A stretch of 48,718 nt of DNA from a virus (lineage: Duplodnaviria > Heunggongvirae > Uroviricota > Caudoviricetes), in IMG/VR virus record IMGVR_UViG_2597489870_000007; one strand, given 5' to 3'. The notes below the pieces were generated by a model that was not told the origin of the DNA, searched no databases, and saw only the letters and a list, made by a program, of their open reading frames with translations. The first letter of the stretch is position 1; every line of letters starts with the position of its first letter. This document shows, in pieces, positions 26,621 through 27,051 of the stretch. The position numbers and the translations under genes are program-made.

Positions 26621-26730
26621 GCAGAATATTCACTCTGATATTACGCATTGTTTTGCTTTTGTAGATTCGCAATTTACGGTAAAAATACTTTTGCTATTTC
26701 TTCGTACCATAAATGCACAGGAGTATCTTC

Positions 26731-27051
26731 ATGTCCATAAAGGTATTCAGAAGTGACCTTCAGACTGAGAGTGAATCAGACTATCGTAATTGGCTTGGCG
26801 ATAATCCAGACGGATATGTTGTCAATGCATTGAAGCGAACCAGAGGTAAAGGTAATAAATCTGACGAATGCTTTACCAGAATCCATAGAGCATCTTGCAA
26901 AACGATTAATCCCTTGAAACGCAAGATCGATAAAACAGGATTCACAACTGGAGATTATCAAAAAATATGCTCAACCAACTTCCTCAATGTTGAAAATGAA
27001 GCAAAGAAAATGACAGGTCTGACAAGCATCATCAAATGTCGATGCATCTAA
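26731..27051 (+). CDS. Hypothetical moron protein, about 106 aa, at the lambda bor position
   Basis: AGGAG ribosome-binding site 8 nt upstream of ATG at 26731; AT-rich; opposite strand to the late operon; no signal peptide; Cys-containing (CFTRIHRASC, CRC). No family recognised. Confidence 0.5.
   Translation: MSIKVFRSDLQTESESDYRNWLGDNPDGYVVNALKRTRGKGNKSDECFTRIHRASCKTINPLKRKIDKTGFTTGDYQKICSTNFLNVENEAKKMTGLTSIIKCRCI

Follow-up and report, generated by a model that had tools for sequence, protein, structure and literature searches.

What does a short, AT-rich gene do between the cos site and the lysis genes of a lambdoid prophage, on the strand opposite to the late operon? The question is raised by IMG/VR record IMGVR_UViG_2597489870_000007, a stretch of 48,718 nucleotides (hereafter the window) that is a lambda-like prophage, read in reverse. 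The gene product, 106 amino acids long, is identical to WP_000025002.1 of enterotoxigenic Escherichia coli (ETEC) H10407 and carries the RefSeq label "hypothetical protein". An earlier reading of the same letters, hereafter the original prediction, had proposed an accessory gene expressed in the lysogen, or moron, at the position of lambda bor. We found that the gene is a real mobile accessory gene, one of the changing cargoes that lambdoid prophages carry between their lysis cassette and their cos/terminase module. The descriptive points of the original prediction were borne out, with corrections to the start of the interval and to one cysteine. Its product can be classified from sequence comparison as a single-domain member of a widespread, unnamed family marked by a conserved H-C-C-C-C pattern, and it may serve as a nucleic-acid-binding module in conflicts of the prophage with other phages or with the host.

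Variable cargo between cos and the lysis genes

Evidence for mobility came from comparison of the window with bacterial and phage sequences. A segment of 855 base pairs (bp) is 100% identical to ETEC H10407, and 54 out of 5,426 complete E. coli genomes carry the cargo segment at 98–100% identity. When phage records were searched by megablast, 80 of them matched the cos region only (26400–26585) and none matched the cargo segment. The only phage record with a protein homologue was that of Klebsiella phage ST846-OXA48phi9.2 (61% identity), in which the gene is flanked on one side by the lysis genes and on the other by that of the small terminase subunit, and is on the opposite strand. Similarly, homologues in Leclercia prophages occupy the same lysis/terminase junction, although the terminase there is of the Terminase_2/Terminase_6 type and not lambda Nu1/A. 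In E. coli EN-1077 (locus L013), the gene stands beside a packaging module with a DUF1441 small-terminase-like gene, and the junction pattern is again the same. Left of position ~26577, EN-1077 carries this different packaging module (the DUF1441 gene and other cosB-side sequence), whereas to the right it is ~98% identical to the window. Since identity starts at ~26577, the junction at which the modules recombined lies inside or next to cosN (26571–26582). About 150 bp of upstream DNA are kept with the open reading frame (ORF) in this strain, where the left flank differs. These comparisons indicate that the gene moves as a cassette among phages with different packaging modules. They also bear on the original prediction, which had made the moron depend in part on conservation in related prophages: the gene is kept in prophages of E. 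coli, Klebsiella and Leclercia alike, with the junction unchanged.

Among related phages, the gene is present or absent at this one junction, and its base composition is distinct. Other occupants of the same cos–Rz interval are lambdap79, lambdap78 and bor in lambda/DE3 and four other genes in PhiR46_1. Across 26600–27300, the guanine-cytosine (GC) fraction is 0.38–0.41, compared with 0.52–0.56 in the flanks. The cargo segment as a whole (26586–27431, 846 bp) has a GC content of 40.0%, against a mean of 53.0% (standard deviation 4.7%) over all segments of this length; equally low values were reached in only 2 of 958 such segments, both overlapping it, which makes it the AT-richest stretch of the window. 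The drop in base composition that had been described was therefore confirmed.

The gene also shows signs of being maintained. Against the Klebsiella and Leclercia genes (61–62% identity), the ratio of nonsynonymous to synonymous substitution rates (dN/dS) was 0.11–0.19, with synonymous sites saturated. Clustering at 90% identity grouped 66 member sequences, and individual members occur on up to 1,000 or more contigs. Judged by these codon comparisons, the gene is under strong purifying selection.

The boundaries given in the original prediction (26640–27051) needed revision. The gene itself is real, but the proposed start lies upstream of the coding sequence. The ORF listing runs from 26713 to 27051 on the plus strand, and both the RefSeq annotation and the homologues begin at the second ATG, at 26731, yielding the 106-residue protein (MSIKVF...KCRCI). 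A ribosome-binding site of its own, as had been claimed, is present in the form of AGGAG 7 nucleotides before this ATG. Because the genes for holin (S), lysozyme (R), Rz, Nu1 and terminase A are all on the minus strand (Table 1), the gene is antisense to the late operon, which agrees with the orientation originally reported.

The comparison with bor was likewise found to be apt, within limits. We mapped cosN by transferring the annotated cos site of phage DE3 through alignment onto the window, and the gene falls into the cos–Rz interval on the strand of bor, as had been proposed. Lambda Bor thus shares with it the interval, the orientation antisense to the late operon and the character of a small accessory gene dispensable for lytic growth. 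In contrast, the lipoprotein Bor has a signal peptide and a lipobox and is exported, whereas the 106-residue protein lacks both and has no hydrophobic segment (highest Kyte-Doolittle mean over 15 residues, 0.36). It gave no match to Pfam Lambda_Bor at E ≤ 1, and the two proteins are unrelated in sequence; here, too, the original prediction had been right to keep them apart. A further difference is that bor abuts Rz, while the present gene sits at the cos-proximal end of the interval.

A separate observation concerns a 43,337-bp record deposited as a plasmid (NZ_CP174001.1, E. coli SZQ1), which carries the cassette. One of its two matching places is at positions 1–617, where the record begins. 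The match may cross the start of a circular record, and the record itself may be the genome of this phage, assembled as a circular episome, and not a true plasmid.

An unnamed H-C-C-C-C domain and its fusion partners

The protein has a mass of 12.1 kDa and an isoelectric point (pI) of 9.4. It had been described as lysine-rich, with the motif CFTRIHRASC and a C-terminal CRC, and this was accurate as far as composition goes: 12 of the 106 residues are lysine (11.3%) and both motifs are present. The first cysteine of CFTRIHRASC, however, is not conserved. Cys47 is encoded by TGC here (codon at 26869). The more frequent E. coli allele, WP_000025003.1, has CGC (Arg) instead, and arginine occupies this position in the other E. 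coli alleles and in all 17 homologue clusters; the cysteine is a lineage-specific R47C change.

The original prediction could not assign the protein to a family. No curated model matches it (Pfam, PHROGs, PADLOC and NCBIfam, even at E ≤ 1), but it can now be placed in an unnamed domain family that is often fused to HNH. A word-indexed search returned the 17 clusters mentioned above, all from Enterobacterales. A profile search of 1.84 billion protein representatives gave 242 at E ≤ 1e-3, and a broader profile run against a set of 5.8 billion proteins gave 321 clusters. The family consensus reads F..D..Y..WL..[NH]P.GFV.N......LHRA.C..I.......GFT.R.Y.K.C......L..W........C..C.P. The window protein, which was the profile seed, carries the corresponding motif of ~95 residues (Y..W...[NH]P.G[FY]V.N ... 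H-[RK]-A-x-C ... [FY]T...Y.K.C ... C-x(1-2)-C), its conserved residues being Y18, W21, G28, N32, H52, R53, C56, T72, Y76, K78, C80, C103 and C105. Of these, H52, C56, C80, C103 and C105 are among the invariant residues of the 17 close clusters. Across 285 aligned domains of the wider family, W21 is invariant and G28, V30, N32, H52, C56 and K78 are essentially so; H52 is never replaced in the 279 domains that cover the position, and the complete H-C-C-C-C ligand pattern is intact in 228 of the 285. Median pI values of 8.5–9.0 mark the domain as moderately basic. Length is uniform among the close homologues, at 105–110 residues in 16 of 17 clusters, the exception being a protein of 121 residues with a C-terminal extension.

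An AlphaFold model built from 131 sequences reached a predicted local distance difference test score (pLDDT) of 92.2 and a predicted template modelling score (pTM) of 0.85. The predicted order of elements is a strand (4–6), a helix (14–24), a strand (29–34), a helix (43–48), a strand (50–53), a long loop, a strand (76–81), a helix (84–95) and a short strand before the terminal CxC. According to this model, the domain would be an alpha/beta fold; it is probably held by one zinc ion. The family as a whole is probably zinc-binding, since five conserved Cys/His residues on three segments, including a terminal CxxC or CxC, are the usual signature of structural zinc. As candidate ligands we would guess H52 and C56 (HxxxC, at the end of strand 3), C80 and C103-x-C105.

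The same residues could be read otherwise, with the conserved His, Cys, Lys and Asn forming a catalytic site. The protein would then be a toxin or a small enzyme, such as a papain-like thiol hydrolase in minimal or permuted form or a transferase of alkyl or thiol groups. We hold this to be very improbable: the spread of the five Cys/His residues over three segments with a terminal CxxC is typical of structural zinc, no acidic residue is conserved and many copies are solo, lacking any antitoxin partner. Sequence profiles of 18 and 131 sequences found nothing meaningful in the PDB, and the best Foldseek match to the PDB had an E value of 0.8, with recurring weak papain-like and ATP-grasp matches that we took as noise. 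The family has no solved structural relative and no known fold.

One Pfam model, DUF6233 (PF19746), was the only one to touch the family recurrently (31 of 131 members), over the L-H-R-A-x-C region. Membership was rejected: the relatives scored 13–14 bits against a gathering threshold of 27.6, and the window protein gave no match. DUF6233 itself has no known function and no literature.

Hints at function came from the company that the domain keeps. Among 150 listed representatives, 81 are stand-alone proteins of 85–120 residues and ~55 are multidomain. Pfam partners in these 55 were HNH (14), HNH_2 (8), HNH_5 (2) and NOV_C (2), giving 24 HNH-type matches, while a protein kinase, a YgjP-like peptidase, HTH_31 and HTH_3 were each found in one member. 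In the HNH fusions, the domain is N-terminal to the nuclease. The fused nuclease parts match PADLOC models named "type IV methyl-directed restriction enzyme" (13 and 11 members), and 4 fusion members match the NCBIfam model "phosphorothioated DNA-binding restriction endonuclease". An adjacent methyltransferase was found at neither of the two HNH-fusion loci examined. Tandem arrangements also occur: the metagenomic protein P0025 (340 residues) has three copies of the domain behind an N-terminal membrane anchor, and P0035 (329 residues, also metagenomic) has two copies followed by HNH.

Distant stand-alone copies were found in two kinds of surroundings. Some are near toxin-antitoxin, defence or insertion sequence (IS) genes, namely PhD/YoeB with HSDR_N and an upstream helix-turn-helix gene (HTH_3), an AAA_15/NurA-like pair, IS91 with TumE, and DruA; others are single genes between housekeeping genes. 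One distant stand-alone homologue, P0258, is present as two identical copies in the Anaerolineales metagenome-assembled genome GCA_015075405.1 (loci L007, L008 and L009). The first copy is directly downstream of an IS91-type Y2 transposase gene and upstream of a TumE-family gene, and the second lies at a distance of 3.5 kb from a DruA gene. Mobile elements other than phages also seem to carry the domain gene.

With this domain architecture in hand, it can be asked whether the prophage copy is a decaying remnant, that is, the orphaned and functionless N-terminal piece of a former domain-HNH gene. The window protein does stop exactly at the end of the domain, where its relatives continue into HNH, and no promoter was found for it. 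However, the strong purifying selection described above (dN/dS 0.11–0.19), the constant length in 16 of 17 clusters, the 81 of 150 listed representatives that stand alone at 85–120 residues, the good Shine-Dalgarno sequence and the lack of any HNH-like frame in the downstream DNA all speak against decay. We disfavour this explanation and find it scarcely credible.

A possible role in conflict over DNA

We tentatively favour the explanation that the protein is a stand-alone, zinc-stabilised module for binding nucleic acid, whose gene the prophage carries as an accessory for conflict with other phages or with the host. Binding to nucleic acid is suggested because in other bacteria the same domain forms the non-catalytic N-terminal module of solitary HNH nucleases resembling the McrA type. 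In McrA and ScoMcrA, the non-catalytic module of such HNH enzymes is normally a reader of DNA or of its modification. The likeness to McrA- and ScoMcrA-type (type IV) endonucleases lies in solitary HNH or HNH_2 proteins whose N-terminal half is a distant homologue of the domain, placed where the reader of DNA modification sits. The window protein differs in having no HNH of its own: it ends at residue 106 right after the domain, it has no HNH match in Pfam or PADLOC, and no nuclease ORF follows downstream. It would accordingly be a cytoplasmic, basic, single-domain protein that binds nucleic acid, most likely DNA, and possibly a modified form or a backbone feature of it. At a guess, the binding face would comprise the conserved sheet residues N32, H52, K78 and Y76 along with residues Y18 and W21 in helix 1. 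The protein would then help the prophage against other phages or against host restriction, either keeping incoming DNA out or shielding DNA.

As for timing, the analogy of bor and of taiEcA of phage phi80 suggests that the protein would be made in the lysogen and that the antisense late transcript, which depends on Q, would silence it in lytic growth. TaiEcA, a defence protein that interferes with tail assembly, is made in the lysogen and counteracted by the Q-dependent late transcript; its gene belongs to a moron locus situated immediately upstream of the packaging genes in this lambdoid phage (PMC11364771). The shared location offers a regulatory and functional precedent. The proteins themselves differ in size (26.1 kDa for TaiEcA, 12.1 kDa here), and nothing connects the 106-residue protein with tail assembly. 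Autonomous expression in the lysogen, as the original prediction had it, is plausible.

Several observations weigh against this explanation. A consensus scan and an enumeration of plus-strand sites found no sigma-70-like promoter with at least 8 of 12 matches at the gene, the best candidates reaching 7 of 12 (for example TTGTAG-16-AAAAAT at 26659/26681), and a scan for plus-strand intrinsic terminators found none there. The gene's own promoter is assumed, then, and not seen. The homologue of Klebsiella phage ST846-OXA48phi9.2 (locus L002, region 3960–4003) has a perfect extended -10 element, TGtTATAAT, ~28 nucleotides before its ATG, in the 46-bp gap between the divergent terS start and that ATG; no comparable site is present in the E. 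coli cassette. PADLOC models have no match to the window protein, and literature searches by accession, together with the supplements of the DefensePredictor paper, turned up no mention of it. Finally, the domain also occurs with kinases, with helix-turn-helix domains, behind an N-terminal membrane anchor or alone between housekeeping genes, and a role in sensing a protein or a ligand would suit these contexts as well as DNA binding does.

This last point can be developed into an explanation of its own, in which the domain senses a protein or small molecule and, in the fusions, switches on HNH or kinase effectors in response to a phage component or signal. The prophage copy would then be a decoy, sponge or adaptor that, for instance, titrates the trigger or partners a host effector. 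The fusion partners give it some substance, as they include a Ser/Thr kinase resembling the PD-T4-6/MAD6 defence kinases, antitoxin-like helix-turn-helix domains and the membrane anchor. The invariant W/Y/Y/N/H/K set would suit a ligand pocket, and phages are known to encode small sponge proteins of comparable size. Nevertheless, HNH fusions dominate (24 HNH-type matches in the 55 multidomain proteins), and at both loci examined the fusion gene stands without a neighbouring cyclase gene or other gene that would generate a signal. Tandem copies of a domain are more usual in proteins that bind nucleic acid, and the domain is moderately basic. We consider a sensor unlikely, while giving it some weight.

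Location raises another alternative, that of an anti-restriction or early-entry factor, with a free recognition domain masking the phage's own modified DNA from type IV HNH nucleases. Lambda DNA enters the cell right end first. Because the ATG at 26731 is ~150 bp from the right cohesive end, with the gene reading inward and away from cos, the gene is on the first DNA to enter. The window also encodes an orphan DNA methyltransferase of 350 residues (28652–29704, minus strand), located between the antiterminator region and the holin gene, just upstream of the lysis genes, and its activity would make the prophage's DNA a target of methyl-directed nucleases; the domain, moreover, is common to type IV-like nucleases. 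Yet the Leclercia locus that has the homologue carries no methyltransferase between Q and holin, and the pairing is therefore not conserved. An early-entry factor would also sit uneasily with the failure to find a promoter at the gene and with the antisense orientation, which matches the lysogen-expressed genes of this site, bor and taiEcA. The anti-restriction protein Ral of lambda is encoded in the early left operon. Taken together, these points leave early entry a distinctly improbable explanation.

Within the favoured reading of a nucleic-acid-binding module, one further comparison was pursued. The motif and order of elements suggested a resemblance to the N-terminal zinc domain of Ada (C38-RPS-C42 ... 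C69-KR-C72-QP), which docks on the DNA backbone. We checked the Ada sequence against the PDB (1u8b, 1adn), collected 80 diverse Ada loci and ran hhalign with column-shuffle and reversal controls. The likeness to Ada_Zn_binding (PF02805) was not significant and counts among the points against nucleic-acid binding: the hhalign probability was 2%, 3 of 80 shuffles scored as high, and the reversed profile reached 14.0 compared with 15.4. The register was the predicted one, with His52 at the first ligand position, but the score was weak. The zinc ligands of Ada are C38, C42, C69 and C72, and its methyl-acceptor Cys38 would correspond to a histidine in the present family, which also differs by an extra N-terminal strand, a longer loop and the additional conserved Cys80. 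We treat the Ada resemblance as a lead, and an unproven one.

A bolder version of the same idea can be formulated. The domain might be a hitherto undescribed zinc-dependent DNA reader, perhaps a divergent relative of Ada in which the methyl-acceptor cysteine has become histidine, that recognizes a base or backbone modification and defines a new class of type IV HNH enzymes. The stand-alone form would then provide nuclease-free defence or anti-restriction by occupying sites on incoming or resident phage DNA. We put this forward as a speculation that is unlikely to hold.

The gene belongs to a well-known class, that of prophage accessory genes, and the domain itself is the more interesting object. 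Genes of lysogenic conversion and of defence against phages, such as bor and Tai, are known from the cos/terminase-proximal cargo site of lambdoid prophages, and the cassette is a further conserved occupant of this site, in prophages of pathogenic E. coli (including ETEC H10407), Klebsiella and Leclercia. At 12 kDa, the protein offers a tractable entry to an unnamed family repeatedly wired to HNH nucleases. If the domain reads DNA or its modification, a restriction-like annotation could be given to a set of solitary HNH proteins that are at present unclassified, and the prophage would be a case of a phage that carries the recognition half of such a system alone. Should the protein prove inactive in all assays, the gene would be an ordinary hypothetical moron gene.

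Other features of the cassette and its surroundings

The cargo segment contains a possible second gene, an unannotated ORF of 50 residues (MRGMPRGSRGQRAVQSTARRARRSNASHSDQLGCLALIIVGLIFIYFMAN) with an arginine-rich N-terminus and a C-terminal transmembrane helix (Kyte-Doolittle maximum 2.9). Four E. coli alleles differ by seven substitutions in it, six of which are synonymous in frame, whereas the minus-strand ORF that overlaps it (27238–27384) acquires a stop codon in EN-1077. It gave no match in Pfam, in PHROGs or by tblastn against phages, and no called protein in the protein collection has exactly this sequence. We conclude that it is probably a real small membrane protein. As an obligate partner of the 106-residue protein it was rejected, being absent from the Klebsiella and Leclercia loci. 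Similarly, a small minus-strand gene at 27238–27384, considered as an analogue of phi80 atiEcA, was disfavoured on account of a stop codon in EN-1077.

Table 1. Positions of the cassette, its parts and the neighbouring late genes in the window.
Feature	Position	Strand	Basis or remark
Terminase A	23948..25873	-	late operon
nu1	25848..26393	-	late operon
cosN	26571-26582		mapped via alignment to the annotated cos site of phage DE3
Upstream region travelling with the gene	26583..26730	+	cos-proximal part cosQ-like; remainder a putative promoter region
AT-rich cargo segment (moron)	26586..27431		from cosN/cosQ to the Rz stop
Shine-Dalgarno AGGAG	26719-26723	+	7 nucleotides 5' of the ATG at 26731, read from the sequence
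Coding sequence of the 106-residue protein	26731..27051	+	RefSeq annotation and homologue starts
50-residue ORF	27269..27421	+	unannotated; Arg-rich N-terminus, C-terminal transmembrane helix
Rz	27432..27887	-	late operon
Lysozyme (R)	27872..28369	-	late operon
Holin (S)	28369..28647	-	late operon

An Rfam scan of 26350–27500 gave chance-level matches only. An inverted repeat at 26418–26474 lies between cosN and the start of nu1, where lambda has cosB; it is probably a cosB element and is located outside the moron.

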